Notes under the pieces: model-generated | Told to the model about the DNA's origin: nothing | What the model saw: the letters and a program-made list of their open reading frames with translations, nothing else | The model's database searches: none | Shown: positions 8,428 through 26,119 of the stretch, piece after piece | Position numbering within the stretch: the stretch's first letter is position 1 | Layout of the letters: each line of letters begins with the position of its first letter | Translations under genes and position numbers: made by a program | Assembly: GCA_021802705.1 (NCBI GenBank) | Contig: JAJZRL010000001.1 | Location: 20,379 to 84,378 of the forward strand | Reading direction: 5' to 3' | Length of the DNA: 64,000 bases | Origin: a bacterium | GTDB taxonomy: Bacteria > Patescibacteriota > Minisyncoccia > Phycocordibacterales > Phycocordibacteraceae

Positions 8428-9654
8428 TCACCTTGCACGGAGCTCTTTCGAACGTGCCGCGCGATGTTTTGCAAGCGCGAAACGATGAGCTTCGGCATTC
8501 GCGAGAACGATATCGGTTTCGGAAACGGAAATGCTGGCAGCACGGACGCCGAGAATTTCACGCGGGCGATGCCGTTCATCCTTCACTACTGTTATGACAG
8601 GGATAGAAAGGCCCGCCGCCGCGAGCGCTTCTTCCGCCGTCTTCTTCTGGACTCTGCCGCCATCGACGACGATAACGTCAGGCAACGGCCACTCAGGATG
8701 TCCGAGTCGGCGCGAAAGGATTTCCCTGAGAGAACCGATGTCGTCGTCCTTCTTGAGTCCGCGGATGCGGAACGTGCGATACGCTTTCTTCACGGGCATA
8801 CCCGCTTCGACGACGACCATGACGCCGATTGCGTTGGTTCCGGCAAGATGGGCTGTGTCATAGGCCTCGATACGCATTTCTCCCGTCTCCTCGCGGTCTT
8901 CTTTGATAAGCGAAACGTCCTGCACATGATCGAGAGCATAGAGCTCGCGACGAAGCTCGGCCGCATCTTCGAAACGTTCTTCCTTCGCCGCCTGCCTCAT
9001 CTGTTTTTCGAGTGACTTGCGCAATTCGGTCGTGCGGCCGGCAAGGAAGAGCGCGATGTGCCGGATCGCTCGCCGGTATGCCTTCGCGTCGAGCGCGCGG
9101 GGATATTGCCCGATCTGCCGGTTAAACTCGACCTTCGCGAGCGCATGCTTGCTCTTTGTCATAACCGGCTTTGGCGTATCGTAGAAAGGGAAAATCTTAC
9201 GGATGAGCCGGAGCGCGTCGCGGAGCTGCGATCCGGATGGAAACGGCCCGAATATCTTCACGATTGGAAAGTCAGACTTTCCAGAATCAAGGTCTTTGCC
9301 GCGCATAGTGAGCACGCGCGGCCACTCCTCTTTCGTGATGACCGCATAAAGGAAAGTCTTGTCATCCTTCCCTTCCACGTTCGCCTTCGGCTGATATTTC
9401 TTGATAAGCGCCGCTTCACGCACCAAAGCTTCGAGCACGGTCAGCGTCGGCTCGAACGCGACCGTTCCGGCTTTCGTCACCATGTCGACAATACGCGGAC
9501 CTCGGGTCACGATGAGGTCGTCATCAAAATAGCTTCTCACGCGGTCGCGAAGCGATGTCGCTTTGCCGACATAGAGCACCGTCCGGCCTTTCTTGAAAAG
9601 ATACACGCCCGGTGTGTCGGGCAGATCGAGCTTATGAAGGTCGCTTCTTTGCAT
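8428..9654 (-). CDS. uvrC: Excinuclease ABC subunit C, short form (GIY-YIG + endonuclease; lacks C-terminal HhH)
   Basis: [49 protein letters not shown] motif. Start placed at the internal Met (9654), which overlaps the uvrA stop by about 23 nt. Confidence 0.75.
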   Translation of the reverse strand: MQRSDLHKLDLPDTPGVYLFKKGRTVLYVGKATSLRDRVRSYFDDDLIVTRGPRIVDMVTKAGTVAFEPTLTVLEALVREAALIKKYQPKANVEGKDDKTFLYAVITKEEWPRVLTMRGKDLDSGKSDFPIVKIFGPFPSGSQLRDALRLIRKIFPFYDTPKPVMTKSKHALAKVEFNRQIGQYPRALDAKAYRRAIRHIALFLAGRTTELRKSLEKQMRQAAKEERFEDAAELRRELYALDHVQDVSLIKEDREETGEMRIEAYDTAHLAGTNAIGVMVVVEAGMPVKKAYRTFRIRGLKKDDDIGSLREILSRRLGHPEWPLPDVIVVDGGRVQKKTAEEALAAAGLSIPVITVVKDERHRPREILGVRAASISVSETDIVLANAEAHRFALAKHRAARSKELRAR

Positions 9655-12289
9655 GGCGGTGCTTAAGCGTTCTCGAAAGGTAAACGCCGGTGTGAGAGTT
9701 GTCAGTCGCGGCGACTTCTTCAGGAGTACCTTTGGCGATAACCTTACCGCCGCCTTCACCGCCTTCGGGACCGAAATCAATGAGATGATCAGCGCTCTTG
9801 ATGACGTCAAGGTTGTGTTCGATGACGACGACCGTGTTGCCGCGCGCAACGAGCTCCTGGAGGATCTCGATAAGCTTCTTCACGTCGTCGTAATGGAGTC
9901 CGACGGTAGGCTCGTCGAGGAGGTAGAGCGTCTTCATCGTTGTCGGACGGTAAAGTTCCGAGGCGATCTTTATGCGCTGAGCTTCGCCGCCCGATAAGGT
10001 CGTCGCGCTCTGGCCGAGCGTAAGGTATTCGAGTCCGGTGGCGTTCAGCGAGCTCAGCCGTTCCTGGATAGCGGGGATATCTTCGAAGAATCTTTCCGCT
10101 TCCTCGACCGTCATTTCGAGCACGTCGCGGATATTCCTGCCGCGATAAGTCACTTCCAGCGTTTCCTTCATGAAGCGCGTACCGTTGCAGACATCGCAGG
10201 TTACGTAGACCGTCGGCAGGAAGTGCATCTCAACCGCGATAGAGCCGTTGCCCTGACAAGCCTCGCAGCGTCCGCCAGGCACGTTGAACGAGAAACGGCC
10301 GGGCTTCCATCCGCGAGCCCGCGCTTCGCTCGTAGCTGCAAAGAGGTCGCGGATATGCGTAAACGCGCCGGTATACGTAGCGGGATTAGACCGCGGCGTA
10401 CGGCCGATCGGTGACTGATCGATGAGGATCGCGCGCCCGATATACTCGGTACCGGCGAGCGAGGAGACATGCTCGAGCTTGGATTCGCGTTTCGCGAAGC
10501 GCTTGGCGATGTTCTTATGAAGGATGTCGTAAAGGAAGGTTGACTTGCCGGAGCCGGAAACGCCGGTGATGCAGACGAGTTTGCCGAGCGGCAGATCGAT
10601 GTTCTGGTTGACGAGATTATGGAGGGTCGCGCCACGCACTTTTATCCACCCGCGCTCGGCAGTGCGGCGCGTCTCGGGCACCGCTATGCTGTTTTCCTGG
10701 CGCAGGTAGGAGAGCGTGCGAGAGCCGCTCTTATTCTCTTTTGCTTCAAGAAGATCGGAGAGCCAACCCGAAACGACAACCTTGCCGCCATGCGTGCCGG
10801 CGCCGGGCCCGATGTCGACGATGTAGTCAGAGGCATAGATCGTATCCTCGTCATGCTCGACCACGATGATCGTGTTACCGAGGTCTTTGAGCGTAAGGAG
10901 GGTTTTGATAAGCCGGTCGTTGTCGCGCTGATGCAGCCCGACGGTCGGTTCATCGAGCACGTAGAGCGCGCCGGTGAGCCCGCTTCCGAGCTGAGAAGCG
11001 AGACGGATGCGCTGCGCCTCGCCTCCCGAGAGCGTCGCGGCCGATCGGTCGAGCGTGAGATAATCGAGCCCGACGTTCAGCATGAAGGTAAGACGGCTTT
11101 CGATCTCTTTGAGGATCGGTGCTGCTATGTCGAATTTCATGTCGGTAAGCTCGATCGAATCGATAAAATCTTTCGCGTCGCGGATCGACATCGACGTGAA
11201 ATCCACGATGTTCTTGCCAAGTCCCTTGTCTTTGTCGCCTTTCAGGTATACGCGCAGAGCTTCGGGACGCAGGCGTTTGCCTTCGCACGCCGGACACGCT
11301 TCCTCGGAAAAGAGCGTCTTGGTACCGAGCCCGTTACAGGCCGGGCACGCGCCGTAAGGCGAGTTGAATGAAAAGAGGCGCGGTTCGACTTCCGGGAATG
11401 ACGTACCATCGTCCGGACAAATGAATTTTGACGAGAGCGTTTCGACCGTGCTATCGGCGTGACCGATCTTCACGAGACCATCCGCTTCCTTAAGCGCGAG
11501 CTCGAGCGCTTCGGAGAGACGCTCGCGCGCCGTTGCGGCCGAACGTGTGAACTCGGAGACATAGATGCTGTCGACAATCGCATCGATGCTGTGGCGCTTG
11601 TTGCGGTCGAGAACGATCTTCTCGCGCAGGTTGTGCGGTGCGCCGTCAATCACCACCTTCTCGAAACCTTTGCCGAGGAGATCGTAAAGAAGCTGATAGT
11701 ATTCGCCCTTGCGCCCGACGACCACCGGTGCGTAAATGACGACCGCTCTCTTGTCGACGGCCACGCCGAGCACTTCGCCGGCTCCTTTCGGCTTATCCTG
11801 TCTTGCCTCGATGTGCGAGAAAACGAGTTTTATCATCTCCTCCTTCGAGAGACGCGAGATGTGCACGTCGTGATGGATGCAGTAGGGCTGGCCCGCACGG
11901 GCATACAAAACGCGCAGGTAGTCGTAAATCTCGGTGACGGTCGCCACGGTCGAACGCGGATTGTTGGAACGGCTTTTCTGGTCTATGGAAATGGCCGGCG
12001 AGAGGCCCGTGATCTCATCGACGTCGGGTTTCGCCATCTGATTCAGGAACTGGCGCGCATACGCGGAAAGCGACTCGACATACCGCCGCTGCCCTTCGGC
12101 GAAAATCGTATCGAAAGCGAGCGAAGACTTGCCCGAACCGGAGAGGCCGGTGATAACCGTCATCGCCCCGCGCGGCATCTCGACATCGATATCCTTCAGA
12201 TTATGCGTGCGCGCGCCCTTCACGCGGATCCAGTCGCTCCCGTGTCTGTGCGTATGTTCCTCTTTTTCTTTTGCGGTCTTTTTCGGCAT
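9632..12289 (-). CDS. uvrA: Excinuclease ABC subunit A
   Basis: Two ABC ATPase modules ([12 protein letters not shown]..., [11 protein letters not shown]...). Zinc-finger Cys clusters. LSGGEAQR signature twice. Start at internal Met 12289 ([10 protein letters not shown]...). Confidence 0.9.
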
Positions 12290-12529
12290 GCCTAAATCCT
12301 GCCCGTGGCGGGACAGGTACGATGTGACTATACCACGAAAACTCCCCTGCACAGAAACCTCCCGACCCCGATGACTCGACGCCGGAATATGCCCGCGTTC
12401 TTTATTCGTGCAGAGCGTATAGCCACGAAATATTGACAATGATTTAGTCCCTGTTTATATATAGCTAGCTGTTCGGTTCCGCTGCCCTTCTGGACCGCGG
12501 TTGATCCTTGAACTTTTGGGAGAGATCTC

Positions 12530-13258
12530 ATGAATACCGTTAGTCTCATTATCGCAGCATGGGTTGGACTCGGGACGCTCGGCATCTGGTTCCTCGTCTG
12601 TCTCTTCACCGTCGCGAATCTGCACTATCGCGACGAAAAGACGTGGCATGCACGGTTCATCCTTATGCCGAGAAACCTGATTGCTCAGGCCACTTCGGCA
12701 TCATCGACACCCAAGCTGCCGAGAGACAAGTGCTCCTATTTCCGGAGTATGTTTCTTTGGACGTTTGTCAGATGGATCCTTTTGGCCGTGATAATAACCG
12801 CCATCTTGGGCCTATACGCCATTACGACTAGCTTTAAGCTGATCAGAGACTGGATCGTCTATCCTGTCTTCACTGGCAAATACGTACTGCTCTTTCACGA
12901 GCTCGGGGACCGGAATGCTGATCCTCTTCCATGGAAGACAGCGGTTGGGGCATACCTGTCGACCGGATTCGGATTGTCAGAGGAAAGGTATGCTATCGAT
13001 GGCAAGATCCCGTTTACCCGGACTCCTCCCGTCGTATGGATATCCTTGTCGGCATTGCTGTACGAGACCGTCATACATTGGCGCGATGTGTCTCAGAGCG
13101 TTTTCGGGATAATTCCTCAGGCGCTATCCGTCATTGCTGTCTTTACCCTGATCTTTCTCGTCGTGAAAAACAAGCAGAAAATCGGAGCGACTATCGAGCG
13201 AGCACGCCACAGGGTTTGCTGGGAACTTCCCGACCCTCCTAGGGAGACGATCGAATAA
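12530..13258 (+). CDS. Hypothetical multi-pass membrane protein (242 aa)
   Basis: Several hydrophobic helices. Sole plus-strand gene in a divergent position between uvrA and uvrB. Looks less GC-rich than neighbours. Confidence 0.4.
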   Translation: MNTVSLIIAAWVGLGTLGIWFLVCLFTVANLHYRDEKTWHARFILMPRNLIAQATSASSTPKLPRDKCSYFRSMFLWTFVRWILLAVIITAILGLYAITTSFKLIRDWIVYPVFTGKYVLLFHELGDRNADPLPWKTAVGAYLSTGFGLSEERYAIDGKIPFTRTPPVVWISLSALLYETVIHWRDVSQSVFGIIPQALSVIAVFTLIFLVVKNKQKIGATIERARHRVCWELPDPPRETIE

Positions 13259-13297
13259 TTCCCCTTCTTATCGAGGCCTACATTGCGTAGGCCTTGT

Positions 13298-15340
13298 TTA
13301 TTTTCCTGATGGCGACCTTTTAGCCTGCTTCCTCCTTTTCGGCTCGGTACCCTCGAGCCGATAGATCTCATCGCGGATGAGCGCGGCTGTCTCAAAATCG
13401 AGACGTTCTACGGCCTCAGCCATCTCCTCGCGTTTTCTCTTGATGAGCGTTTTCGGGTTCTTCCTGTAAGCAAGTTCGTCGAGCGCTATGAGCTCGTCCA
13501 CGGTCTTCTGGTGCTCGCTCCGCATCGTCTCGGCGATATCTTTGATTTCTTTCTTGATCGTCTCCGGCGTGATGCCGTGCTCCCTGTTATACGCAAGTTG
13601 CAGTTCGCGGCGACGGTTGGTCTCGCCGATAGCCCTTTCCAGTGAGCCGGTCATAACGTCGGCATAGAGAATGACGCGGCCCTGAACGTTCCGGGCCGCC
13701 CGCCCGATGGTCTGAATGAGCGAGGTTTCGGAGCGCAAGAAGCCTTCCTTGTCGGCGTCGAGGATGCCTACGAGCTCGACTTCGGGCAAGTCGAGCCCTT
13801 CACGCAAAAGGTTCACGCCAACGAGGACGTCGAACTCGCCTCTGCGGAACTTCGTAAGGATCTCGATACGGTCGATCGTTTTCACATCGGAGTGGAGGTA
13901 CTCGGCCTTGACGCCCTTGTCACGCAGAAAGATCGAGAGGTCTTCAGCCATCTGCTTGGTGAGAGTCGTCGCGAGCACGCGGCCACCTCTCTTGATGACG
14001 CGTTCGGCCTCGGCGATGAAGTCTGCGACCTGGCCCGGATACTCCTTCGCCTCGATAACGCCCTTAACCGCGAGCTCCGGATCGACGAGCCCCGTCGGAC
14101 GGATGATCTGCTCGACTATCTGCTTGGAATGGTCGCGCTCATACGAACCCGGCGTGGCGCTCGTGCAGATGACCTGTCCCACGCGCTCCTCGAACTCTTC
14201 GCCGGTGAGCGGGCGGTTGTCGCGGGCCGACGGAAGGCGGAAACCGTATTCGACAAGATTATCCTTACGCGAACGATCGCCCGCGTACATGCCCGCGATC
14301 TGCGGCACCGTAACGTGCGATTCGTCGATTATCGTGAGGAAATCCTTATCGCATCGCTTGAAGTAGTCGAGGAGCGTGTACGGCGCATCGCCGGCTTTAC
14401 GGCCGTCGAAATGGCGCGAGTAGTTCTCGATACCGTTCACGTAACCGATCTCGCGAATCATCGCGATGTCATGGAGCGTACGGCGTTTCAGGCGTTCGGC
14501 TTCGAGCGGCTTGGATTCCCTTTTGAATTTCGCGAGCTGCTCGTCGAGCTCGACCTTGATATCCGCGAGCGCCCGTTCGCGTTCCTCCTCGTTCGTTACG
14601 AAATGTTTGGCCGGAAAGACAAAGACGCTCTCGGGTTCGCCGACATTCGCGCGCGAGATCGGATCAAGCTGGTCGATGCGCGCGATCCTGTCCTCGTCAA
14701 AGGCAACGCGATACACGATGCGCTCGTTAACCGGCATCACCTCGAGCGCGTTCCCGACCGCGCGCACCTTCCCCGGCTCAAGATCGGCACTCGTGCGCTC
14801 GAAATAGATAGTTACGAGTTTGCGGATGAGCGAAGCACGGTCCTCTTTGGCGCCTTTTTCGATCCTCACGTGCACCTTCTCGTACTCCTCGGGCGAACCG
14901 AGGCCGTAAATGGCGGAGACCGAAGCGACGATGATAACGTCTTTGCGCGTGAGGAGCGCCTGGGTCGCGGCGTGGCGCAGACGATCGATCTCGGCGTTGA
15001 TCATCGCCTCCTTCTCGATGTAGGTGTCGGAGTGCGCGATATACGCTTCCGGCTGGTAGTAGTCATAATAGGAAACGAAATAGTGCACCGCATTCTTCGG
15101 GAAGAATTCGCGATATTCCTGCGCAAGCTGTGCGGCCAGCGTCTTGTTGTGCGCAAGGACGATAGCGGGTTTCCCGTACGAGGCGATGACATTGGCTATC
15201 GTAAAAGTCTTGCCGGTGCCGGTTGCGCCGAAAAGCGTCTGGTGGCGCATCCCCTGCTCAAGCCCTTTTTCAAGCGCTTTGATGGCTTGCGGTTGGTCGC
15301 CTGATGGCGGCCACGGGGTATGTAACATGAAATCAGCCAT
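13298..15340 (-). CDS. uvrB: Excinuclease ABC subunit B
   Basis: Helicase motifs [13 protein letters not shown]. UvrB beta-hairpin region. C-terminal UVR motif RDEIYRLEG. Start taken at [10 protein letters not shown]. Confidence 0.9.
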
Positions 15341-16553
15341 AGTATTCGCGGATGAAGTCCGCGCGGTATTCGTCAAACCGTCCGTTTAAAATGGCTTCGC
15401 GCGCACCGGCGACGAGCTTCAGGATGAAACCGACATTGTGCATGGAAGCAATGGTAGCGCCAAGAAACTCTTTGGCGCGAATGAGGTGCGCGACATACGC
15501 TCGCGTAAAACCTTCGGTACCCGCGATGACTGTGTCAGGATCGAGCGGTCCGAAATCGTCCTTATACTTCTCGCCCGTGAGGTGGATGATGCCTCGCTTG
15601 GTGTAGAGAGAACCGTGACGGCCGATGCGGGTCGGCGCGACGCAGTCGAAAAGATCCATGCCGTTAGCGATGCCTTCAAGAATATCTCCGGGCTCGCCGA
15701 TGCCGAGGAAATGCCGCGGAAGCTCTTCCGGCAGTTCTTCCACGGCTGCTGAAAGCGCGCCGCGCATGTCTTCTTTTGAAAACGAACCGCCGATGCCGAT
15801 GCCGTCGAAGCCGAGAGAGGCTATCGTGCGCGCGGATTCGCGGCGCAGGTCTTCATGCCGACCGCCCTGCACGATGCCGAAGAGAGCCTGTCGCTCTCGC
15901 GCTCCAAGATTCTGCCGATGAGCGGCGAGTGACCGTTCCGCCCATCGGTGGGTACGCAGCATCGCTTCGCGTTGATAATCATACGGCTCCACAGGCGACG
16001 TGCACTCGTCAAAGGCGAAAAATATGTCGGCGCCGAGAGCGTGCTGTATCTCGACGGAACGTTCCGGCGTAAAGCGATGCAATGATCCGTCGATGTGCGA
16101 CGTGAACGAGACGCCTTCTTCATCGATGACCGCGAGCTGGCCGTGCTGGCTCGCGACGCTTTCATCATAAACCGCGAGCTGGTCCTCCTTCTCTCCGGTC
16201 TCGCCCTTCACGAATTTTGAAAGCGTCTTTCCGAAGGCCGCGCCGAGCGAGAAGACTTGGAAGCCGCCCGAGTCGGTCATCGTAGGTCCTTGCCACCCCA
16301 TAAACGTTCCCAGTCCGCCCGCGTTCCGCACGACCGCCTCTCCCGGCTGGAGATAGAGGTGGTAGGTGTTCGCGAGCACGACGTCGGCGCCAAGTCCTGA
16401 AAGGGTGCTTGGCAGAATACCTTTCACATCCGCCTTCGTGCCGACCGGCACGAAGGCGGGCGTGCGGATGACGCCGTGCGAGGTCGCGAGAGCGCCGGCG
16501 CGCGCGCCGGCGTGCGGCGCGCGCGCCTCTATGGCAAAAGAGAAGGCACTCAT
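15333..16553 (-). CDS. tgt: Queuine tRNA-ribosyltransferase
   Basis: TPAFVPVGTKADVKG, TYHLYLQPGE and C-terminal Zn-site pattern of Tgt. The stop overlaps the uvrB start by 8 nt. Confidence 0.9.
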   Translation of the reverse strand: MSAFSFAIEARAPHAGARAGALATSHGVIRTPAFVPVGTKADVKGILPSTLSGLGADVVLANTYHLYLQPGEAVVRNAGGLGTFMGWQGPTMTDSGGFQVFSLGAAFGKTLSKFVKGETGEKEDQLAVYDESVASQHGQLAVIDEEGVSFTSHIDGSLHRFTPERSVEIQHALGADIFFAFDECTSPVEPYDYQREAMLRTHRWAERSLAAHRQNLGARERQALFGIVQGGRHEDLRRESARTIASLGFDGIGIGGSFSKEDMRGALSAAVEELPEELPRHFLGIGEPGDILEGIANGMDLFDCVAPTRIGRHGSLYTKRGIIHLTGEKYKDDFGPLDPDTVIAGTEGFTRAYVAHLIRAKEFLGATIASMHNVGFILKLVAGAREAILNGRFDEYRADFIREYYG

Positions 16554-17362: not shown

Positions 17363-17875
17363 TTACTGCGCCGGCTTCTGCACCTTCAAGAGCTCGACTT
17401 CAAATATAAGCGTCGAGTTTGCCGGAATGACGTTCCCGATAGCCTGATCGCCATACGCAAGAGGGGCGGGGATGACGAGCTTGCGCTTACCCCCGACTCT
17501 CATCCCGACGATACCTTCATCCCACCCTTTTATCACTTGTCCCGCTCCGAGCGTAAAGGTGAATCCTTGCGAGCCATGATTGGCGGATGCGTCAAAAACG
17601 GTGCCGTTGGCCAATGACCCGACATAGTTGACCGTAACCGAATCCCCCGGCTCGGCGACTGCGCCTGTTCCGACGGATTCATCGGTGATCTGTAGCTGGT
17701 TCGTAGTATCGTTTGGCATGGTTGTAGAGGCGGTTTGATTGATAGTGGTTGCTTCAGCCGTTTGCCCGTTTGACGGAGCAGCCGGCTGGAACGGCGAGAA
17801 TCCGGGAAGGATGAAAAATATGATGACGACAACGAGCGCGAGCGTAACAGCGATTCCTGTTGGTGTTGGTTTCAT
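17363..17875 (-). CDS. FKBP-type peptidyl-prolyl cis-trans isomerase, membrane anchored
   Basis: C-terminal GDSVTVNYVGSLANGTVFDAS...GAGQVIKGWDEGIVGMRVGGKRKLVIP...LIFEVELL FKBP domain. N-terminal TM. Confidence 0.8.
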   Translation of the reverse strand: MKPTPTGIAVTLALVVVIIFFILPGFSPFQPAAPSNGQTAEATTINQTASTTMPNDTTNQLQITDESVGTGAVAEPGDSVTVNYVGSLANGTVFDASANHGSQGFTFTLGAGQVIKGWDEGIVGMRVGGKRKLVIPAPLAYGDQAIGNVIPANSTLIFEVELLKVQKPAQ

Positions 17876-17890
17876 ATGGTGGAAAGTATA

Positions 17891-18199
17891 CTATGCGGCC
17901 TGGAATTTCTTAAAGCGTTGCACTTCTTCCGTAACAGCGCGTTTTACCAGCTCATCATGATCAGGGACTTCCCGATCAAGGAACGTCTTGAGCGCCACGA
18001 TATCTCCCGCTTCTGAGAGCTTTGAGAATTCAGCGCGCAGCTCTTCCGAAAGTCTCGAGAGTACGGATATCGTCGCTGCCTTGAGCGCAACTTCGCCGAA
18101 TTGCGCGATGAGCATACGCTGTTCCTCTTGCGGGCGGTCTGCGATACCGAGATCCTGAGCAATGCGAGCGGCTGCGTCATCGGGCATAGTCTGTATCAT
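17891..18199 (-). CDS. Hypothetical small protein (102 aa)
   Basis: ORF tightly spaced (15-16 nt) between the 802-aa protein and FKBP gene, suggesting co-transcription. Confidence 0.3.
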   Translation of the reverse strand: MIQTMPDDAAARIAQDLGIADRPQEEQRMLIAQFGEVALKAATISVLSRLSEELRAEFSKLSEAGDIVALKTFLDREVPDHDELVKRAVTEEVQRFKKFQAA

Positions 18200-18215
18200 A
18201 GCACGGGCCGTAAAG

Positions 18216-20624
18216 TTATTTGCCGACCTGTTTTACGAACGTTTCCGGATTGATGCTGCCTATCTGCGAGGGATCCGGTTCGCCGGCTGGAAACAGCACG
18301 TATACGCCCCGCAGCCAGCCCCCATACTTGACCGGAAATACCCAGGGTCGCCATGAGCCTTTATAAAAAACGGGTTTTTCGGCCTGCACCCAGACGACGG
18401 CATCGTGATGAGTCTTTACGTAATTTTCTGCCGCGACAAATTGAGCGCTATAGTCCTTGCCGTAAGCGAGAAAGGCGCCGGTCGAGTCCTCGAATACATG
18501 TCCGGCTGCAAGATCGATCGACAGGCCGTTTCGATTTGTAAACGAAAGGACCTGTTCCGGCGACAAGGGCGATGTCGCTGCTTTTTCCGAATTCGGTTCC
18601 AAGGACGCGACAGCAGACGGAGCATGCTCGTTTCCCGCCTCATGTTTGGTTATCGGCTCATGACTGCCGGATTTCGCTTCAGAAGATTCTGAATGGGGTT
18701 TTTCGGAAAAAACAGCGGAAGGGATGACCTCTTTCAGACGCCGATGTGGCGGGGAAACATGATGACGCGCGGCTTTAGCCACTGGAGCTCGCGCAACGTG
18801 AGCGGTACCCGTACCGTGCGACGAGATGCTCGGCAACGTCTCAAACGTCGAGGAGAACGTTTGCTCGCGAGTATGCGTACCGGTTGTAAGAGGCGCTCCT
18901 CCTTTGGCAGGCGCTGAGGTCTCCGTATCATGGCCGAGCGTATGTGCGATCCATGCTTCGCTTACGCGCGATGCGCCAAGAAACGAAGCGGTCTCGTACG
19001 CCCCGAGACCGACGATCGCGGCGATGATGATTTTCATTTTCCAGGACACGCCGAACTTGTCCATCTCCTTCTTGAGTTCTTCGTCCCGTTTCAGGAAGTA
19101 TGCCCGGGACGTTTCGGCGCTTTCCGCTGTTCCTCCCGCCAGACGTCCGATAAGCTCGCGCAGAAGACTCTTCGACTCCGCAGGAGTACGCTCCGGGACG
19201 GTGGTCTTATACGCTCCGTTATCGCGAGACGAGTAACTTGATTCCGGCTCTTCTCTCTCCATCCCTCCCGCACGACGCATCATCCAGGCATGCTGCGGAT
19301 CGATTGCCTCGTCAGGATCCGGGACGATCGGCAATTCGCTCTTTACCGGCGCCGGAGAAGCACCGGCAATGATGATGTTTGAGGTCCGGATTGTGCCGCC
19401 TGCCTCTTCTTTCGGTTTCTGCGGGATTTCATCAGAGTGTCCTCTTGCTGCCGCACGCTCCCGGGCAAGGAAGGACTCGATATCCGTTTCGGGAAGCGTA
19501 TCGGACGTCGAGAGGTTCTTTGCGCGCGTATCGAAGAAATCCTGGAATCTTTGATGTACTTCGTCCGGAACGGCGCTGAATTCCATAGGACCGTTCGCGT
19601 CTCTTCGGTACAATGCGTAAAGCTCCCCGAGCGTGGCGCTGCGCTGTTCCTCGAGGGGAGAAGGCGTCCACGGCGCACCTTCTTTCTCCCCCTCATCTTC
19701 GTGCGATGGTTCGGGTGTCAGTTCGTTCGGAGTCTCCTGTTCCCTGCCAAACGTAAACTCGAGCGGTTCGCGTTTCTCGGGACTCTTGCGAGGCGCGGGT
19801 GATTCCAGACGGCGCAGCTCATTCTCGAGCTCGAGAACTTCTTTTTCAAGCTCGTCATGGTCGTGCGGGTAGTCGGCCGGGCTCGCCGCTTCGCGCTCAA
19901 GCGTCGAAAGGCGCTGCCGGATTTCCTGTGCGCGATCCACAGTCGTACTGATTGCGCTCGACTCCTGCTTTATAGATGCGCTTTCTCCCGCTTCAAGAGC
20001 GTGCAGCTTAGCTTCGCGCATTAGGACATCCGATTCGATATCCTTACGGGCGCCGGGTCGTGCGGCTTCCGCTTCAAGATCCCGTATCTCTGCCCGTAGT
20101 TGTCGAATAGCGGTCTCTTTCGGCGAGAGTTCGGTCTCCTTTTCGCTTATCGAGCCTTCGTTCTCGGACACGTGTACGACCTCAGAAGCTTCGCCCGCTG
20201 AGTCCGGAGGGCTTGGCTCTGGGTTCGCCTGCGCGACCGACCCTGGCTCCGGTTCCGATTCCGAATCAAGAGGGTTCGGATTCGGACTCCCAGACGGGAC
20301 GTCTTCGGCAGATTCCGGAGTATCCGGGTTTGTTATTCGCCTGCGCGGCCTCGATGACTTTTCGCTTTCTGGCTTTTTTTTCTCCGCTTCACTGGAAGCG
20401 AGTCTCTCTACATAGCTTTTTTTTGTTTTCGGATTCTTGAGTTTCTCATACATTGCCAAGACCTGCGGGGGGATCTTATCGCCGTAGATCTGCTTCAAAG
20501 GAGACAAAGGGTCCTTCTCCGCCTGCGGCGACTTAGCCTCGGAAGATGCCGGCGATTTCGGAAGGTTCTCCGGCTCGACGGGAATATCTTTCTTTTTCAA
20601 GAACTCCGGAATTCGTTCGACCAT
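18216..20624 (-). CDS. Large (802 aa) single-pass membrane protein: acidic/low-complexity coiled-coil N-terminal region, TM helix, C-terminal globular domain
   Basis: N-terminal 550 aa rich in E/S/P/K with ELEKEVLELENELRRLE coiled coil. TM helix MKIIIAAIVGLGAYETASFLG. C-terminal 180 aa conserved-looking domain. Start is 14 nt after the VirB4-like gene stop. Confidence 0.45.
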   Translation of the reverse strand: MVERIPEFLKKKDIPVEPENLPKSPASSEAKSPQAEKDPLSPLKQIYGDKIPPQVLAMYEKLKNPKTKKSYVERLASSEAEKKKPESEKSSRPRRRITNPDTPESAEDVPSGSPNPNPLDSESEPEPGSVAQANPEPSPPDSAGEASEVVHVSENEGSISEKETELSPKETAIRQLRAEIRDLEAEAARPGARKDIESDVLMREAKLHALEAGESASIKQESSAISTTVDRAQEIRQRLSTLEREAASPADYPHDHDELEKEVLELENELRRLESPAPRKSPEKREPLEFTFGREQETPNELTPEPSHEDEGEKEGAPWTPSPLEEQRSATLGELYALYRRDANGPMEFSAVPDEVHQRFQDFFDTRAKNLSTSDTLPETDIESFLARERAAARGHSDEIPQKPKEEAGGTIRTSNIIIAGASPAPVKSELPIVPDPDEAIDPQHAWMMRRAGGMEREEPESSYSSRDNGAYKTTVPERTPAESKSLLRELIGRLAGGTAESAETSRAYFLKRDEELKKEMDKFGVSWKMKIIIAAIVGLGAYETASFLGASRVSEAWIAHTLGHDTETSAPAKGGAPLTTGTHTREQTFSSTFETLPSISSHGTGTAHVARAPVAKAARHHVSPPHRRLKEVIPSAVFSEKPHSESSEAKSGSHEPITKHEAGNEHAPSAVASLEPNSEKAATSPLSPEQVLSFTNRNGLSIDLAAGHVFEDSTGAFLAYGKDYSAQFVAAENYVKTHHDAVVWVQAEKPVFYKGSWRPWVFPVKYGGWLRGVYVLFPAGEPDPSQIGSINPETFVKQVGK

Positions 20625-20638
20625 ATAGAAATGGATAA

Positions 20639-23416
20639 TCAGCGCGAGAGGTATCGCTCTCGTATCGCATTCTCAATGGTAGCACGGTCCCGTCCGTAGG
20701 TGAGTGCGGAAAGCTGGATAAGATCGGCCATTTGGGCATGGTTTGGCAGCGGCAGGTCCGGCGTATGCAGATCGAACGGTTTTTGCGGCACGCCACTCGC
20801 AAGGATCTTGACGTACGCGTTCCGGTTTTCCAAGTTGACGAAATCCAGAGCCGTAAAAACCGGAGCGAACTGTTTTTCGAAGAATTCGGCATCTTCTTCT
20901 CCGACGCGGAAAATCGCCATACTGCCGACGTTGCCGAAAACGGCGTTCCGCGTCTTCTCATCCACCTGCGCGAGAAACTGGTGCGCCATCGAAAGCGAGA
21001 GCTTGTACTTGCGCGCTTCCGAAAGGATGCCGGGGATCGAATCGGTCGTGATGTTCTGGAATTCATCGATATACAGGTAGAAAGGCGGACGCAACGCGTG
21101 CGGGCTGTCAGCACGCGAAAGCGCCGCCATGAAGAGCTTGCCGACGACGATAAGCCCGATCAGGTTCGCATTCCGTTCTCCGAGACGTCCTTTCGAAAGG
21201 TTAACGAGCAGAATCTTCCTCGTATCCATGACCTCGCGAAACTTAAACGAAGATTCCTGCTGTCCGACGATGGGGCGTATGAAATCGTTCGCGGTGAAAT
21301 CGTCGAATTTGTTCGTGATGTACGGCACGATGTTCTCAAGCGCCGCTTCGCCGCCGGCCTTTGTCGCAATCTCGTTCCAGAACTGATTGACGACGGGATT
21401 CATGCTTTTCGCGAGTTTTGCCCGCCTGAACTCGGCGCTCGAAAGGACGCGCGCGATATCGAGTATGGTCGAATCGCTGCTCGGGTCTTCCATCACGAGC
21501 AGCGTCGCGTTCCGGAAATACTGTTCGAACGCCGGCCCCATGCTCTCGGGCACGTCGCCATAGAGGCGGCGGAAGATCATGAGAAGCTCGTTGACGATGA
21601 ACGTCTTCTGTTCGGGCCGTGAAAGGTCGTACTCGAGGAAGTTGAGACCGAAGGGCCTGGAAAGATCCGCCGGATCGAAATAAATAACATCTCCGTATCG
21701 CTCCGGCGGCACGCTTGCGAGGATGTCGAGAATATCGGAACCGTGCGGGTCGATGAAACAGCAGCCTTCGCCGTTCCTGATATCCTGGATGATCATCGAC
21801 TTCATGAGACCGGTCTTACCGGTACCGGTCTGTCCGATGACATAGAGATGCCGCAGGCGATCCTCCGCACTCAGATAGACGCGCGTCTCGTGCCCCCGGT
21901 ACGTATTGATACCGAGAAGCGTGCCCGCCTGAGGAAGAGTGAGCGGTGCGGGAGCGTGCGTAAAACGTGCTTGTTTCAGATGCGGCGAGGAGCCGGTGTC
22001 GAACGTCGGGAAATGATAGACGGTCGTCAGTTCGTGCAGCGAAAGGGGAATCGCGGAAGGAGCCGGGAGCCGGAAAGAGAAATTGTCGAGAATATCCTGC
22101 GTGCGCCGGTCTCTTACGCGGGTGAACGAGAGCTTGTTCCCTTGCGTATTCGAAAACTGGTTAAACGCGGCTTCAAGTTCTCCGAGAATCTGTTCGGCTC
22201 TTCCCTTTTCCTGCGCTGAGACGACGAGACGCATCGTCGTGTCGACGATGGGTGAGGCGATTTTTTTCTCGATCTGTTCGATATGGGCCTTGTTCGCTTC
22301 GATCTGGCGGGTTTCCGCTTCTTTCTCTTTCTCTTCGTCTTTCGGCTTGTCCGAGAAGAGCGTCCGGCCGATATCACGAGCTACTTCTCCGAAGATGGTC
22401 TCCGGAGTGGCAAACGCCGCATTACTCTTCTCGCCCTTACGGAGCGCCTGGAGGATTTTCCGGTAATGCTTCACGTACCGGTCGCCTCGCGGCTCGACGA
22501 TAATCTGGAGCGCGACGCCTTCGCCTTCGTGCTTCACGTTGGCAAAGGCGTTGGTAACCGCATTGATCGGGTCATGATCGAAGTCGGCGTAATCTTTGAG
22601 AGGCAGTGCGGGATGCTCGGTGAATGCGGCGACAGACACGACAGAAGCGCCGCTGGAAACGAAGATGTTGTAATCCCTCGGTTGCGGCGTCACATGGGCG
22701 TCCGGGAAAACGGCAAGGAGCTGCTTTTCGAAAAGGTCGCGTTTCCCGTTCGGTACGGCGGCGTAAAATTGGAGTTCAGGGCTGTCCGAAGGTATGGCAA
22801 GCTCAAGCGCGTAATACGAAGGTTCGCCGGGCAGGGCATCGCCGACGGAAAGGAGTCCCGCATAAAACTGCTCCATCGCGGAAATGAGCTCTTTAAGCGG
22901 TCTTGTCTGCTTGTCCGGCCCGCCGTTTCTCGAGCCGGGGAGCGCGATCTCGTAGAGCGTCATGCGGAGCGCCCGAAAACGCGGCGCGCGCTCATCGCCG
23001 GAGGAAAGCGGCAATCCTGCAGCCACATAACGCACGAGATATCGGTGAAAATCGTCTGTAAGGTGCGGATCGTGGAGTTTTTCCAATACGGCAAGCGCAT
23101 TCTTGATGCCTCGTTCTTCGATCGTCCGCTGCAAGCTCTCGATCGCCTGCGTGTCGCTGCCAAGATTAAGTTCGGCAAGTATGCTCGAAGCGGCCGATTC
23201 GACCGCCGCCTCGTTCATACGGTATGCCGGTGCAAGCATCTCCTCGGCAGGTCTTGCATGGTGCGCGTGGATTTGTTCGGAAATGATCGCCGGACGCTCG
23301 ATCGCTGCGTCAGGCCGGACGCTCTGTGCCCGGACCTCCGCTTCCTTGCGAGCCACTTGCTCGCGCAGATATGCAAGCTCTTCTTCCGGCGTGGATAATG
23401 TAGGTAACGATTCCAT
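20639..23416 (-). CDS. VirB4/TraC-like type IV secretion (conjugation-type) P-loop ATPase
   Basis: Walker A VIGQTGTGKTGLMKS. Walker B/DEAW-like FYLYIDEFQN. AHQ motif. About 500-aa N-terminal non-ATPase domain as in VirB4/TraC (AAA_10). Confidence 0.55.
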   Translation of the reverse strand: MESLPTLSTPEEELAYLREQVARKEAEVRAQSVRPDAAIERPAIISEQIHAHHARPAEEMLAPAYRMNEAAVESAASSILAELNLGSDTQAIESLQRTIEERGIKNALAVLEKLHDPHLTDDFHRYLVRYVAAGLPLSSGDERAPRFRALRMTLYEIALPGSRNGGPDKQTRPLKELISAMEQFYAGLLSVGDALPGEPSYYALELAIPSDSPELQFYAAVPNGKRDLFEKQLLAVFPDAHVTPQPRDYNIFVSSGASVVSVAAFTEHPALPLKDYADFDHDPINAVTNAFANVKHEGEGVALQIIVEPRGDRYVKHYRKILQALRKGEKSNAAFATPETIFGEVARDIGRTLFSDKPKDEEKEKEAETRQIEANKAHIEQIEKKIASPIVDTTMRLVVSAQEKGRAEQILGELEAAFNQFSNTQGNKLSFTRVRDRRTQDILDNFSFRLPAPSAIPLSLHELTTVYHFPTFDTGSSPHLKQARFTHAPAPLTLPQAGTLLGINTYRGHETRVYLSAEDRLRHLYVIGQTGTGKTGLMKSMIIQDIRNGEGCCFIDPHGSDILDILASVPPERYGDVIYFDPADLSRPFGLNFLEYDLSRPEQKTFIVNELLMIFRRLYGDVPESMGPAFEQYFRNATLLVMEDPSSDSTILDIARVLSSAEFRRAKLAKSMNPVVNQFWNEIATKAGGEAALENIVPYITNKFDDFTANDFIRPIVGQQESSFKFREVMDTRKILLVNLSKGRLGERNANLIGLIVVGKLFMAALSRADSPHALRPPFYLYIDEFQNITTDSIPGILSEARKYKLSLSMAHQFLAQVDEKTRNAVFGNVGSMAIFRVGEEDAEFFEKQFAPVFTALDFVNLENRNAYVKILASGVPQKPFDLHTPDLPLPNHAQMADLIQLSALTYGRDRATIENAIRERYLSR

Positions 23417-23442
23417 CGGTACGCATAGTATACTGCACGTGA

Positions 23443-24072
23443 ATGCTTGATTTCTTTACCGCTTGTATACATCTCGACCCGATCGGCATCATCAAAGCCG
23501 GCGGATACCTCGGGCTTGCGGTGCTCGTCTTTGCCGAGAGCGGTCTTCTCGTCGGTATCTTCTTGCCCGGCGATTCGCTGCTCTTCGTCGCGGGTCTTCT
23601 TGCCGCCGGCGGTTTTCTCGAGCCATTGTCGCTCACCTTCATCGTCGTCGGCGCGGCGATACTCGGCGATTCGGTCGGCTACTGGTTCGGCACGCGTATC
23701 GGCAGCGCTCTCTTTACCCGCAAGGATTCCCGATTCTTCAAGCAAGCGTACGTCGCGCGAACGCAGGGCTTTTTCGAAACTTACGGCGGACGAGCGATCA
23801 TCCTCGCACGCTTCGTGCCGATCGTACGCACGATCGCGCCGATCCTCGCGGGAGTCGGTTCCATGCGCTACACGCGCTTTCTCTCGTACAATGCGCTCGG
23901 AGGAGTCCTTTGGGGAGCGGGAGTGATCCTGCTCGGGTATTCGCTCGGATCGGTAATCCCGAATAGCGACAAATACGTACTCCCTATCTCGCTTGGCATC
24001 ATCATCCTTTCTTTCTCGCCCCTCCTCCTGAACCTCGTGCGCGGCAAAAGCAAAAGATTGACACGGCAGTAA
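23443..24072 (+). CDS. DedA/VTT-domain family membrane protein
   Basis: GYLGLAVLVFAESGLLVGIFLPGDSLLFVAGLLAA...ARFVPIVRTIAPILAGVGSMRY conserved DedA pattern. Confidence 0.8.
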   Translation: MLDFFTACIHLDPIGIIKAGGYLGLAVLVFAESGLLVGIFLPGDSLLFVAGLLAAGGFLEPLSLTFIVVGAAILGDSVGYWFGTRIGSALFTRKDSRFFKQAYVARTQGFFETYGGRAIILARFVPIVRTIAPILAGVGSMRYTRFLSYNALGGVLWGAGVILLGYSLGSVIPNSDKYVLPISLGIIILSFSPLLLNLVRGKSKRLTRQ

Positions 24073-24610: not shown

Positions 24611-26119
24611 TCAGCGGCTCCAGAGATGGAAGACCCAGTTTATGACGGAGAGCACGAGGCCGAAGAGGAGCGCCGTCCAGAATCCCGCGACAGAAAATCC
24701 GGGGACGAGAGCGGCAGCAAGCATGATGAGGAGCGCGTTGATGACAAGCGAAAAGAGGCCGAGCGTAAGAATCGTAATGGGAAGCGCGAGGAGAAGGAGG
24801 GCGGGCCGGATGAAGAGATTGAGCGCGCCCAAGACGATCGCAGCGATAAACGCACCGGTGAGCGTTATGGTCACGCCGGGGACGATATACGCCGCCACGC
24901 CGATCGCGAGCGCGGCGACAAGCCAGTGGGAGAAAAGCTTCATACGAGAGAGTGTAGCAAGAAACGGGAATCTTGCATTGCCGCCGCCTTCCTCAAGCTC
25001 GGGCTCGCGTCCCTCCGCTGAAGGGAATCCCGTGAGGAAGAATATCGCCGCGATCGTCGAAAGAGGGACCGCAAGCACGATACCGAGCGACCCGACGATA
25101 GCCCGCGCGATCTCCGTCGCGAACATCTCGCGGTTTATCGTCTCCAGAAACGTCTCGCCCCCGTAAGACTGGAAAAGCAGAAGGAGCGGGAGCGCGGCGC
25201 CGACATAGGCGATTGCGAGCGTATTGACGAGCGCGCCGATATGCTCCCGGCCCATACGCATCGCCCGCGCGAAAAGCTGGTACGGAGACACGTGCGGCGA
25301 AGCCCGCAGGAGCTCTTCCACCGCGACGGCCTGCCCTATCGCCGCGTCGTACAGGATCCCGAGCGCGCCGATAAGCATCGCGCCGAGAAGAAGGCCGATG
25401 AAATCAAAATGTCCGTGCATGGCAAAACTGAGATCGACGGTGTTTTCGTCGGAGATACCCGAAAGCTGCAGCGCGCCTATCACCGCATGCGCGATGAATG
25501 TCGTAACGACAACCGTCGCGATAAGCCCGAGAACGGCGGCGCTCGTCGTACGGTTTATGCCATGCGTGAGGAAAGATCCGAAAATGACGATAAGGGAAGA
25601 GACGCCGAAAGCGACCAGGAACGGATTGTATCCGGCCACGATACCGGGAAGGAGCACATAGAACACGAGCATGATGCTCGCGGAAAGGGCGAGGAGCCCC
25701 CGCAGCCCGGTCCAACCGCCGATAAGGATGACGGCAAGAACGAATAAGCCGAGCAGCATCCCGAGCGCATTCAGACGGTCAGGCTCAAGCATGACGTAGC
25801 GGTCGGCTCCCGCGCTTCCGCTGCGGGTCAGGAAGAACGTGTCACCGGGGCGCAGCGGAGAACGATCGTTCTCCACCGTCACGGTCTTTCCTTCATCGCT
25901 TCCGGAGAGGACGAGCGCCGAAAGCATCTGGTACGTCGCCGAATTGTCGGTACCGGGTATATTCCTGATCTGCGTGCTCTCGACGGAAAGCACGCGCGCT
26001 TTCTCGACAGAGACGGATGATTCGCTCGAAGTCGCCGTCGCCGGTGCGGAAGCTTGCGCGTGCGTAACGGTTACGGGAAGCGCGAGGAGAAAAAGCGGAA
26101 TGACGAGGATACGGAACAT
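24611..26119 (-). CDS. YibE/F-like polytopic membrane protein fused to a C-terminal DUF360/phage-holin-4-like four-helix module
   Basis: Signal peptide, about 100-aa exported segment, then 6+ TM helices resembling the YibE/F family. The last 120 aa (IVPGVTITLTGAFIAAIVLGALNLFIRPALLLLALPITILTLGLFSLVINAL...) resemble the DUF360/holin superfamily IV. Confidence 0.4.
   Translation of the reverse strand: MFRILVIPLFLLALPVTVTHAQASAPATATSSESSVSVEKARVLSVESTQIRNIPGTDNSATYQMLSALVLSGSDEGKTVTVENDRSPLRPGDTFFLTRSGSAGADRYVMLEPDRLNALGMLLGLFVLAVILIGGWTGLRGLLALSASIMLVFYVLLPGIVAGYNPFLVAFGVSSLIVIFGSFLTHGINRTTSAAVLGLIATVVVTTFIAHAVIGALQLSGISDENTVDLSFAMHGHFDFIGLLLGAMLIGALGILYDAAIGQAVAVEELLRASPHVSPYQLFARAMRMGREHIGALVNTLAIAYVGAALPLLLLFQSYGGETFLETINREMFATEIARAIVGSLGIVLAVPLSTIAAIFFLTGFPSAEGREPELEEGGGNARFPFLATLSRMKLFSHWLVAALAIGVAAYIVPGVTITLTGAFIAAIVLGALNLFIRPALLLLALPITILTLGLFSLVINALLIMLAAALVPGFSVAGFWTALLFGLVLSVINWVFHLWSR

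Follow-up and report, generated by a model that had tools for sequence, protein, structure and literature searches.

A coupling-protein-like ATPase with a fused helical N-terminus and recurrent candidate partners in a chromosomal operon of a Kaiserbacteria-type Patescibacterium

We analyzed a run of four genes in a 64,000-nucleotide stretch of a Patescibacteria genome (GenBank assembly GCA_021802705.1, contig JAJZRL010000001.1, positions 20,379 to 84,378), hereafter called the window. The run encodes a large ATPase, an 802-residue protein with a single predicted transmembrane (TM) segment (hereafter the partner), a 102-residue protein of the DUF5663 family and an FKBP-type isomerase. In the list of open reading frames (ORFs), all four genes lie on the minus strand in this order, with the following window coordinates:

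20639–23416, minus strand: ATPase gene, 925 amino acids (aa), stop codon included (ORF and translation)
18216–20624, minus strand: partner gene, 802 aa (ORF)
17891–18199, minus strand: DUF5663-family gene, 102 aa (ORF)
17363–17875, minus strand: FKBP gene, 170 aa, the last gene of the run (ORF)

The spacers along the run are 14, 16 and 15 nucleotides (nt), and both the coordinates and the spacing agree with the original prediction, made from the sequence alone, of four ORFs 14–16 nt apart in which the 102-aa ORF and the FKBP gene come last. No minus-strand terminator-like sites were found between the four genes. The window is ordinary housekeeping chromosome with 13 tRNAs, and the four genes form an operon on the chromosome of a Kaiserbacteria-type Patescibacterium.

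The ATPase is divided into three parts:

22997–23416, minus strand: helical N-terminal extension, residues 1–140, which carries the TPEEELAYLREQ motif
21932–22996, minus strand: alpha/beta middle domain (DUF8128), residues 141–495, with a predicted VirB4-N-domain-like fold
20642–21931, minus strand: motor domain, residues 496–925, with Walker A at 21812–21835 and Walker B at 21053–21073

The Walker A (GQTGTGKT, residues 528–535) and Walker B (YIDEFQN, residues 782–788) motifs, both already picked out in the original prediction, are invariant across the protein family. The catalytic residues are likewise invariant in 64 diverse members, and the predicted active site is intact. Residues 1–500 contain no hydrophobic segment and hence no N-terminal TM anchor.

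Comparison of the ATPase with profile models of related motors places it closest to the type IV coupling proteins. In Pfam, DUF87 (HerA central domain; 26 bits, confined to the Walker A region) and TraG-D_C (24.4 bits, cut-off 22) both pass their cut-offs, while TrwB_AAD_bind reaches 16 bits, under its cut-off of 20.5. The top NCBIfam matches are coupling proteins, namely: SXT_TraD (E = 3.5e-13), TOL TraD (3.6e-10) and the CD1115 VirD4-like model (1.3e-8; residues 517–844), all of which fall far below the curated cut-offs. The models CagE_TrbE_VirB, AAA_10, P-loop_TraG and TraC_F_IV give no match at E ≤ 0.1, and the sole VirB4 model that responds, NF045975, does so with E = 0.033 over 34 P-loop residues. 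A profile built from the 64 members matches TrwB (1.7e-7) and DotL (2.3e-6) among PDB sequences and HerA more weakly (E of 0.0045 or above); VirB4 is not among the matches. With phmmer, TrwB matches about 55 family members, whereas TrwK, PrgJ and F TraC match none. HHalign scores the motor at 105 against a small coupling-protein profile (probability 98, E = 2.5e-13) and at 82 against a small VirB4 profile (probability 96.4, E = 1.4e-9); a run of alignment A3 against single TraC and TraD sequences did not discriminate. Among more distant relatives, TrwB_AAD_bind, T4SS-DNA_transf and TraG-D_C are matched; no match to AAA_10 or P-loop_TraG occurs. The motor also has the layout of VirD4, TrwB, TraD and DotL (Walker A ... 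DP.G ... DEF/L ... xHQ).

By sequence, the ATPase motor is thus nearest to the type IV coupling proteins and not to VirB4, within the VirB4/VirD4 branch of the HerA-FtsK superfamily. Its family, DUF8128, is found throughout Patescibacteria and forms a branch of its own within VirB4/VirD4. By membership tests, the protein is not a VirB4, a curated coupling protein, an FtsK or a HerA. The earlier description of the ATPase as VirB4/TraC-like therefore stands for the branch and for the fold of the N-domain (see below), and falls at the level of models, where no VirB4 model matches and the coupling proteins come out best; the hidden Markov model (HMM) comparison proposed at that time to separate the two goes, at the sequence level, against VirB4.

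The full-length AlphaFold2 model of the ATPase is poor (predicted local distance difference test, pLDDT, of 51) and serves as a lead only. The middle domain, modelled separately (residues 140–500), reaches a pLDDT of 80.5 and a predicted TM-score (pTM) of 0.80. In a Foldseek search of the PDB with this model, the top 13 matches are all TrwK/VirB4 chains of R388 (E = 6.6e-6 to 7.9e-4, TM-score 0.43), and the next match has an E of 0.024. Neither coupling proteins nor entries holding only the VirB4 C-domain appear among the matches; it is thus the VirB4 N-domain that is matched, and the large N-terminal domain mentioned in the original prediction has a predicted fold whose PDB matches are VirB4 alone. 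We treat this likeness, at a TM-score of 0.43, as a fold-level lead.

In order to place the ATPase among its relatives, an exhaustive search of representatives was carried out, giving 5304 clusters at E ≤ 1e-30. Most members are 790–860 aa long and consist of one N-terminal TM helix, then DUF8128, then the motor. PF26449 (DUF8128) is assigned in precomputed tables to the identical protein P0001 and to all 120 homologues; with the local Pfam copy, none matched. The window clade has no TM helix and carries instead an N-terminal extension of about 150 aa with the conserved TPEEELAYLREQ motif. Representatives of this clade are 43–50% identical and the copies in 80 species-level genomes 62–80%, and the close homologues come from metagenome-assembled genomes of Candidatus Kaiserbacteria, Paceibacteria and Minisyncoccota. 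An HMM of residues 1–150 finds free-standing ORFs of 115–155 aa directly upstream of TM-bearing family ATPases: these are present at 20 of 35 TM-bearing loci vs. 0 of 27 TM-less loci. This pattern points to a gene fusion that replaced the membrane helix, residues 1–140 of the ATPase being, as judged from the HMM matches, a fused copy of a small helical protein that TM-bearing relatives encode separately. With the TM helix replaced in the window clade, the ATPase itself is predicted to be soluble. Like coupling proteins, most DUF8128-family members are anchored by an N-terminal TM; unlike coupling proteins, they have a 350-aa DUF8128 domain between anchor and motor, and the window clade has neither any TM nor adjoining relaxase or type IV secretion system (T4SS) genes.

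Two variants of the family architecture were also seen. Some TM-bearing ATPases (P0190, P0192, P0197, P0201, P0204–P0206, P0208, P0209, P0211 and P0216) have Pro/Ala-rich disordered C-terminal tails of 700–1200 aa, with the repeats PPIGAPPVD, HFVDP and DPYxxIDxLG and a conserved C-terminal PGEVYVDExGNVxxGE; in having long disordered C-tails, these members resemble DotL and TraD. That the partner might be such a tail in detached form was rejected, as GEVYVDxxGNV, PPIGAPP and HFVDP occur in no partner protein. In P0220 and P0254, which are motor relatives (44–50% identical over residues 487–922), an N-terminal response-regulator receiver domain replaces DUF8128. This suggests soluble, signal-controlled versions of the coupling-like motor outside the Patescibacteria type.

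The second gene of the operon encodes the partner, whose layout is as follows:

19044–20624, minus strand: disordered, charged cytoplasmic region, residues 1–527 (composition), with a coiled coil at about residues 155–275
18969–19037, minus strand: single Gly/Ala/Ser-rich TM segment, residues about 530–552 (hydropathy), N-terminus inside
18600–18968, minus strand: extracytoplasmic Ser/Thr/Pro/His-rich linker, residues 553–675 (translation)
18219–18599, minus strand: conserved C-terminal outer domain, residues 676–802 (jackhmmer)

The 527-aa N-terminal part is 20% E+D, 14.5% K+R and 38% S+P+T+A+G, and gives weak matches to SMC/Rad50 coiled coils. The best 19-residue hydropathy value of the TM segment is 1.7, at residue 532, and five K/R residues precede it vs. 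one after it, which predicts an N-in topology. The acidic, Ser/Pro-rich cytoplasmic part and the single TM are thus as originally predicted, the cytoplasmic part being 527 aa in length and not 550. The 180-aa conserved outer domain proposed at the same time has to be shortened: the 250 aa beyond the TM comprise a linker of about 120 aa, which cannot be aligned among orthologues, and then a conserved domain of only about 125 aa. A jackhmmer search started from this outer domain recovers 56 of 61 positional orthologues, with the consensus N.FGL.I..EPHIY...YGG...YL..NP...D..G..YRIPW..G..P..PVRT.GF.GFFS.FMKAP.P.EF. The domain has no Pfam family and no PDB sequence match, and a homologue search with its profile returned one protein. 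No Pfam family covers the whole partner either, in line with its having been called uncharacterized.

Across the 80 species-level loci, the slot directly after the ATPase holds a single long ORF of 529–1417 aa. The orthologues have a charged, disordered N-terminal part of 100–820 aa, so the TM position varies, and nearly all have a single weak TM with the same K/R bias; the juxtamembrane segment and the first outer domain are also common to many. A protein database search with the partner gave eight homologues only, the best at 43% identity; for the ATPases of these genomes the identity is about 75%. Median global identities to the window copies are 20.5% for the partner, 75% for the ATPase, 60% for the DUF5663 protein and 66% for the FKBP. 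No tandem repeats were found in the low-complexity partner gene. The partner therefore represents a fast-evolving bitopic family whose predicted topology is conserved.

The 102-aa protein is soluble and helical by prediction. The window copy scores 14 bits against DUF5663 (PF18908; cut-off 23.7), and all 24 of its aligned relatives match the family at E ≤ 0.1 (best E = 4.1e-7); on these profile matches, it most likely belongs to the DUF5663 family. It is found in 54 of the 80 related loci at 46–67% identity and is lost together with the partner gene. The 170-aa protein matches FKBP_C at 114.8 bits (E = 2.3e-33), which places it in the FKBP family, and carries an N-terminal hydrophobic membrane anchor; it is, by these features, a membrane-anchored extracytoplasmic peptidyl-prolyl isomerase of the FKBP type. 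Taken alone, the identities given here for the genes of the locus are held with high confidence. The FKBP gene is also the steadiest downstream neighbour of the TM-less ATPase in the species-level loci, with or without the partner pair, as seen at window positions 17363–17875 and in L010, L023, L024, L026, L032, L034, L052, L056 and L079.

Conservation of the gene set was examined first in the close relatives. Of the 80 species-level loci, 71 could be resolved, and the partner was scored in 58; L057 and L067, added by eye, bring the count to about 60. In these ~60 of 71 loci, the partner gene starts 4–13 nt past the ATPase stop, and a DUF5663 gene follows the partner in 52 of the 58. The co-occurrence of ATPase and partner, which the original prediction had proposed to follow across genomes, is thus borne out, and the pair recurs together with a DUF5663 gene in distant lineages (see below), although the partner is not obligatory.

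We then surveyed 80 distant loci, whose ATPases are 37–54% identical to the query P0153, a TM-bearing representative of the family. In most, the genes downstream are unrelated (GtrA-like or NDK genes, for instance). A DUF5663 gene lies near the ATPase in 8 of the 80, and in six of these eight it is directly preceded by the gene for a long, polar protein that has one or two TMs; L102 and L105 have no long polar ORF in this position. The order varies. Upstream of the ATPase, it is bitopic protein, DUF5663 protein, small helical protein (resembling the N-terminal extension), ATPase, complete in L104 and L138 and without the bitopic protein in L102 and L105. Downstream, two types are seen, namely: ATPase, bitopic protein, DUF5663 protein and small helical protein (L098 and L108); and ATPase, partner with an outer domain and DUF5663 protein (L159 and L160), followed in L160 by an FKBP-like gene. 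L157 likewise has downstream placement. The chief argument for a joint function of these genes is that they recur in shuffled order in distant lineages.

In one lineage of TM-bearing ATPases (L096, L097, L100, L113, L114, L118, L120, L125 and L131), a polytopic protein of the GtrA/DPMS type, of about 200 aa, is encoded directly downstream. The gaps between the two genes range from -11 to +109 nt, six of the nine being within about 22 nt.

Taken together, these results lead us to a composite reading, in which the coupling-like ATPase operon encodes a membrane-tethered coupling or translocation complex with adaptors. We put it forward tentatively, at somewhat less than an even chance. At the membrane, the ATPase would form a ring of the HerA/FtsK type and act as a motor for coupling or translocation. 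The bitopic protein would span the membrane as an accessory adaptor: its cytoplasmic arm and the DUF5663 protein would jointly recruit or position the soluble ATPase or its substrate, and its outer domain would make contact with the cell envelope. Since a genuine VirB4 occurs beside a family member in one related locus (L170, see below), the ATPase gene is taken as the coupling-protein-like paralogue, and it lies far from any T4SS genes here: as had been predicted for its immediate surroundings, no VirB6, VirB8-11, relaxase or any other T4SS component was found in the 64-kb window, nor was the ATPase gene present a second time. For protein or DNA cargo, the obvious candidate channel would be the VirB4-type T4SS that these bacteria encode at a distance.

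Several observations weigh against this proposal. Nine close relatives, with ATPases 72–77% identical, run directly from ATPase to FKBP without partner and DUF5663 genes (one of the nine retains a 163-aa N-terminal remnant), and in other lineages unrelated genes, e.g. NDK, come after the ATPase of many TM-less relatives. The nine clean losses indicate that the partner/DUF5663 pair is accessory, and together with the unrelated followers they indicate that the partner is no obligatory anchor; the possibility that the partner is an obligatory replacement for the lost TM is weakened by the same two groups. T4SS genes are absent not only from the window but also from the 10-kb flanks of 81 Kaiserbacteria-type loci. 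The VirB4-N likeness of the middle domain finds no support in sequence, HHalign against four VirB4 N-domains giving a probability of 0.1, equal to the controls. The partner TM is called from hydropathy alone. Finally, the coupling-protein homologue of S. epibionticum is reported not to be required for epibiotic growth (PMC12102498).

A simpler account is that the 802-aa and DUF5663 genes form an unrelated accessory cassette, sitting between ATPase and FKBP and having no functional tie to the ATPase. It is suggested by the clean absence of the pair from the nine genomes, by the other downstream genes (GtrA-like, NDK) of most distant family members and by the presence of DUF5663 nearby in only 8 of 80 distant loci. 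Against it, the spacing is 4–13 nt in ~60 genomes, and a pair of the same type adjoins the ATPase in varied order and on either side in lineages with identities of only about 40%, where it moreover co-localizes with the small protein that the window clade carries as an ATPase fusion. We consider the cassette unlikely, though by no means far-fetched.

A more far-reaching reading is that, within the VirB4/VirD4 superfamily, the DUF8128 ATPases constitute a third branch, a deep one that combines a VirB4-type N-domain with a coupling-type motor, and act in an autonomous, T4SS-independent envelope-spanning machine. Such a machine would include the small helical protein (fused here), the bitopic disordered protein and the DUF5663 protein, and would have relatives in Bacillus phages. 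We give it a minority chance only. The mixed VirB4-like and VirD4-like character of the family bears on how the two T4SS ATPases diverged.

The phage relatives were detected in several ways. Among the BFVD viral models, the middle domain matches Bacillus phage G gp156 and its relatives (E = 1e-15, TM-score 0.60), better than it does the TrwK chains. With tblastn, which gives 3e-28 over 75% of the query, 47 phage records are found, of which 46 belong to phages that infect Bacillus or allied genera. A DUF8128 HMM matches proteins of TP-84 (1.4e-28) and 0105phi7-2 (2e-15). Bacillus and Geobacillus phages, namely: G, TP-84, 0105phi7-2 and SPO1-like phages, encode DUF8128-plus-motor proteins (L179:4778-8043; L180:3916-6455; phage G gp155/gp156). 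As in the bacterial family, both domains are present in G gp156, the 754-aa protein of TP-84 and gp033 of 0105phi7-2; unlike the bacterial proteins, the phage ones, at about 20% identity, are encoded on phages or phage-plasmids, lack bitopic and DUF5663 partners and are preceded not by the helical protein but by small membrane proteins. The latter are 117–126 aa long, an arrangement that recalls VirB3-VirB4. VirB4 relatives sought among viral contigs were not found.

The original prediction had gone further than a VirB4/TraC-like label: the ATPase would be a VirB4/TraC orthologue that forms, with the single-TM partner, a minimal VirB4-centred secretion or uptake apparatus of CPR bacteria (candidate phyla radiation). 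The ATPase is like VirB4, TrwK and TraC in overall size, in its two-domain architecture of N-domain and motor and in the predicted fold of the N-domain, which matches only TrwK/VirB4 in the PDB; the N-terminal TM of most family members recalls VirB3-VirB4 fusions; the full-length model, with its pLDDT of 51, matches TrwK over about 845 columns; and for one phage homologue, gp033 of 0105phi7-2, which bears the annotation 'DNA helicase or translocase', the annotators noted that HHpred matches it to TrwK. Unlike a VirB4, the ATPase is matched by no VirB4 HMM or reference sequence, the N-domains share no sequence similarity, and the references that fail on the whole family contrast with the ~55 members that TrwB matches.

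The metagenomic locus L170 (7549-17393) separates the two kinds of ATPase. It encodes KsgA, a 136-aa ORF resembling the N-terminal extension, an 810-aa family ATPase with an N-terminal TM, an 864-aa polytopic protein, a 288-aa and a 272-aa ORF and a 787-aa protein. The latter matches PrgJ (1.5e-37), P-loop_TraG (1.5e-23), AAA_10 (6.9e-13) and also TraC_F_IV, i.e. models that do not match the window ATPase, and is by these matches a genuine VirB4. With a true VirB4 beside a family ATPase, the DUF8128 family is best described as a paralogue distinct from the VirB4 of Patescibacteria. L170 seems to represent a rare kind of Patescibacteria T4SS cluster, with a coupling-like ATPase attached; it is the only one of the 80 distant loci in which the family ATPase is associated with a relaxase or T4SS. 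In the published CPR system, a true VirB4 is accompanied by VirB3, VirB6, VirB8 and pilins, and the genes lie near dnaA (PMC12102498). The ATPase in the window is encoded with no such companions, and no VirB4 is found in the flanks of the 81 Kaiserbacteria-type loci. A minimal VirB4-centred apparatus is accordingly improbable at this locus.

It should be noted that coupling proteins such as VirD4 and DotL recognize disordered, charged signals. The 802-aa protein might thus be cargo rather than adaptor, the ATPase recognizing its disordered region and aiding its insertion or export and the FKBP folding its outer domain. The gene order, from ATPase to bitopic protein to extracytoplasmic FKBP, would suit such a route, as would a TM that lies more than 500 residues from the N-terminus. 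Yet Sec/YidC is all that an N-in bitopic protein needs when its signal anchor is internal, the disordered region is cytoplasmic by the charge rule and the FKBP synteny holds where the partner is absent. We therefore regard cargo as a poor prospect in comparison with an adaptor role.

It is very unlikely that the ATPase is a DNA translocase of the FtsK/SpoIIIE or HerA kind, serving in chromosome segregation or repair. Such a translocase would belong to the same superfamily, and the DUF87 match, the HerA structures among the weaker matches, the presence of UvrA, UvrB and UvrC within 10 kb and the long disordered tails of some relatives, which recall the FtsK linker, could all be quoted for it. 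The FtsK_SpoIIIE model, however, does not match the ATPase and matches relatives over the P-loop alone; there is no gamma domain, in contrast to FtsK/SpoIIIE, no HAS barrel and no NurA nearby; the N-domain fold matches VirB4 and not HerA; and synteny is conserved only with the FKBP and partner genes, not with the uvr genes. A system for defence against phages with a HerA-like ATPase at its core, to which a weak PADLOC mad8 match over the motor (2.7e-13), weak HerA and DndH P-loop matches and the Bacillus phage homologues might point, has next to no likelihood, given that no other MADS, Dnd or SIR2 components lie nearby and that the ATPase is, unlike mobile defence islands, 62–80% identical and syntenic in 80 species-level genomes in a housekeeping context.

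The coupling-like ATPase of the composite reading bears on a wider question, since Patescibacteria rely on envelope machines to live on other cells. A recent survey counted 5,713 VirD4-like homologues in 2,918 Patescibacteria genomes, of which 148 are near virB4, and left their role open (Quinonero-Coronel et al. 2025, PMC12102498). Wang et al. (2023) noted that S. epibionticum lacks a recognizable coupling protein in its essential T4SS cluster. Patescibacteria have about two orphan VirD4-like ATPases per genome, while their T4SS cluster reportedly lacks a recognizable coupling protein. The DUF8128 ATPases are probably the same proteins as these orphans, with which they share the number of about two per genome and the near-absence of a virB4 neighbour. 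The family is to this extent already catalogued, through its Pfam DUF and the coupling-protein counts of PMC12102498. That survey is silent on domain structure, the small-protein fusion, the bitopic and DUF5663 partners and the phage relatives, and in the set of papers searched, neither DUF8128 nor DUF5663 is mentioned. New here, as far as we found no earlier description, are the fusion, the N-domain fold, the partner set and the phage relatives. The locus gives the orphan family a domain anatomy, the fusion event ties the ATPase to a small partner protein, and the recurrent neighbours, i.e. the bitopic disordered protein and the DUF5663 protein, offer testable handles on its role.

The remainder of the window encodes, among others, UvrA, UvrB, UvrC, TGT, DedA, YibE/F, ZIP, DsbA, TopA, RelA/SpoT, ClpB, IF-2 and SerRS. 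The ATPase start and that of the divergent DedA/VTT gene are 26 nt apart (23416–23443), an interval in which no sigma-70-like site was found; at this distance, either both promoters overlap coding sequence or one of the starts has been called too far upstream. Beyond it, a 502-aa protein (24611–26119, minus strand) consists of a YibE/F-like domain fused to a phage-holin-4 (superfamily IV) domain. The genes for UvrC, UvrA and UvrB are clustered at 8428–15376 on the minus strand. As mechanically called, with a TTG start at 12439, the UvrA ORF overlaps the UvrC ORF by about 218 nt (9632–9849), from which it appears that the UvrC start was probably called too far upstream.

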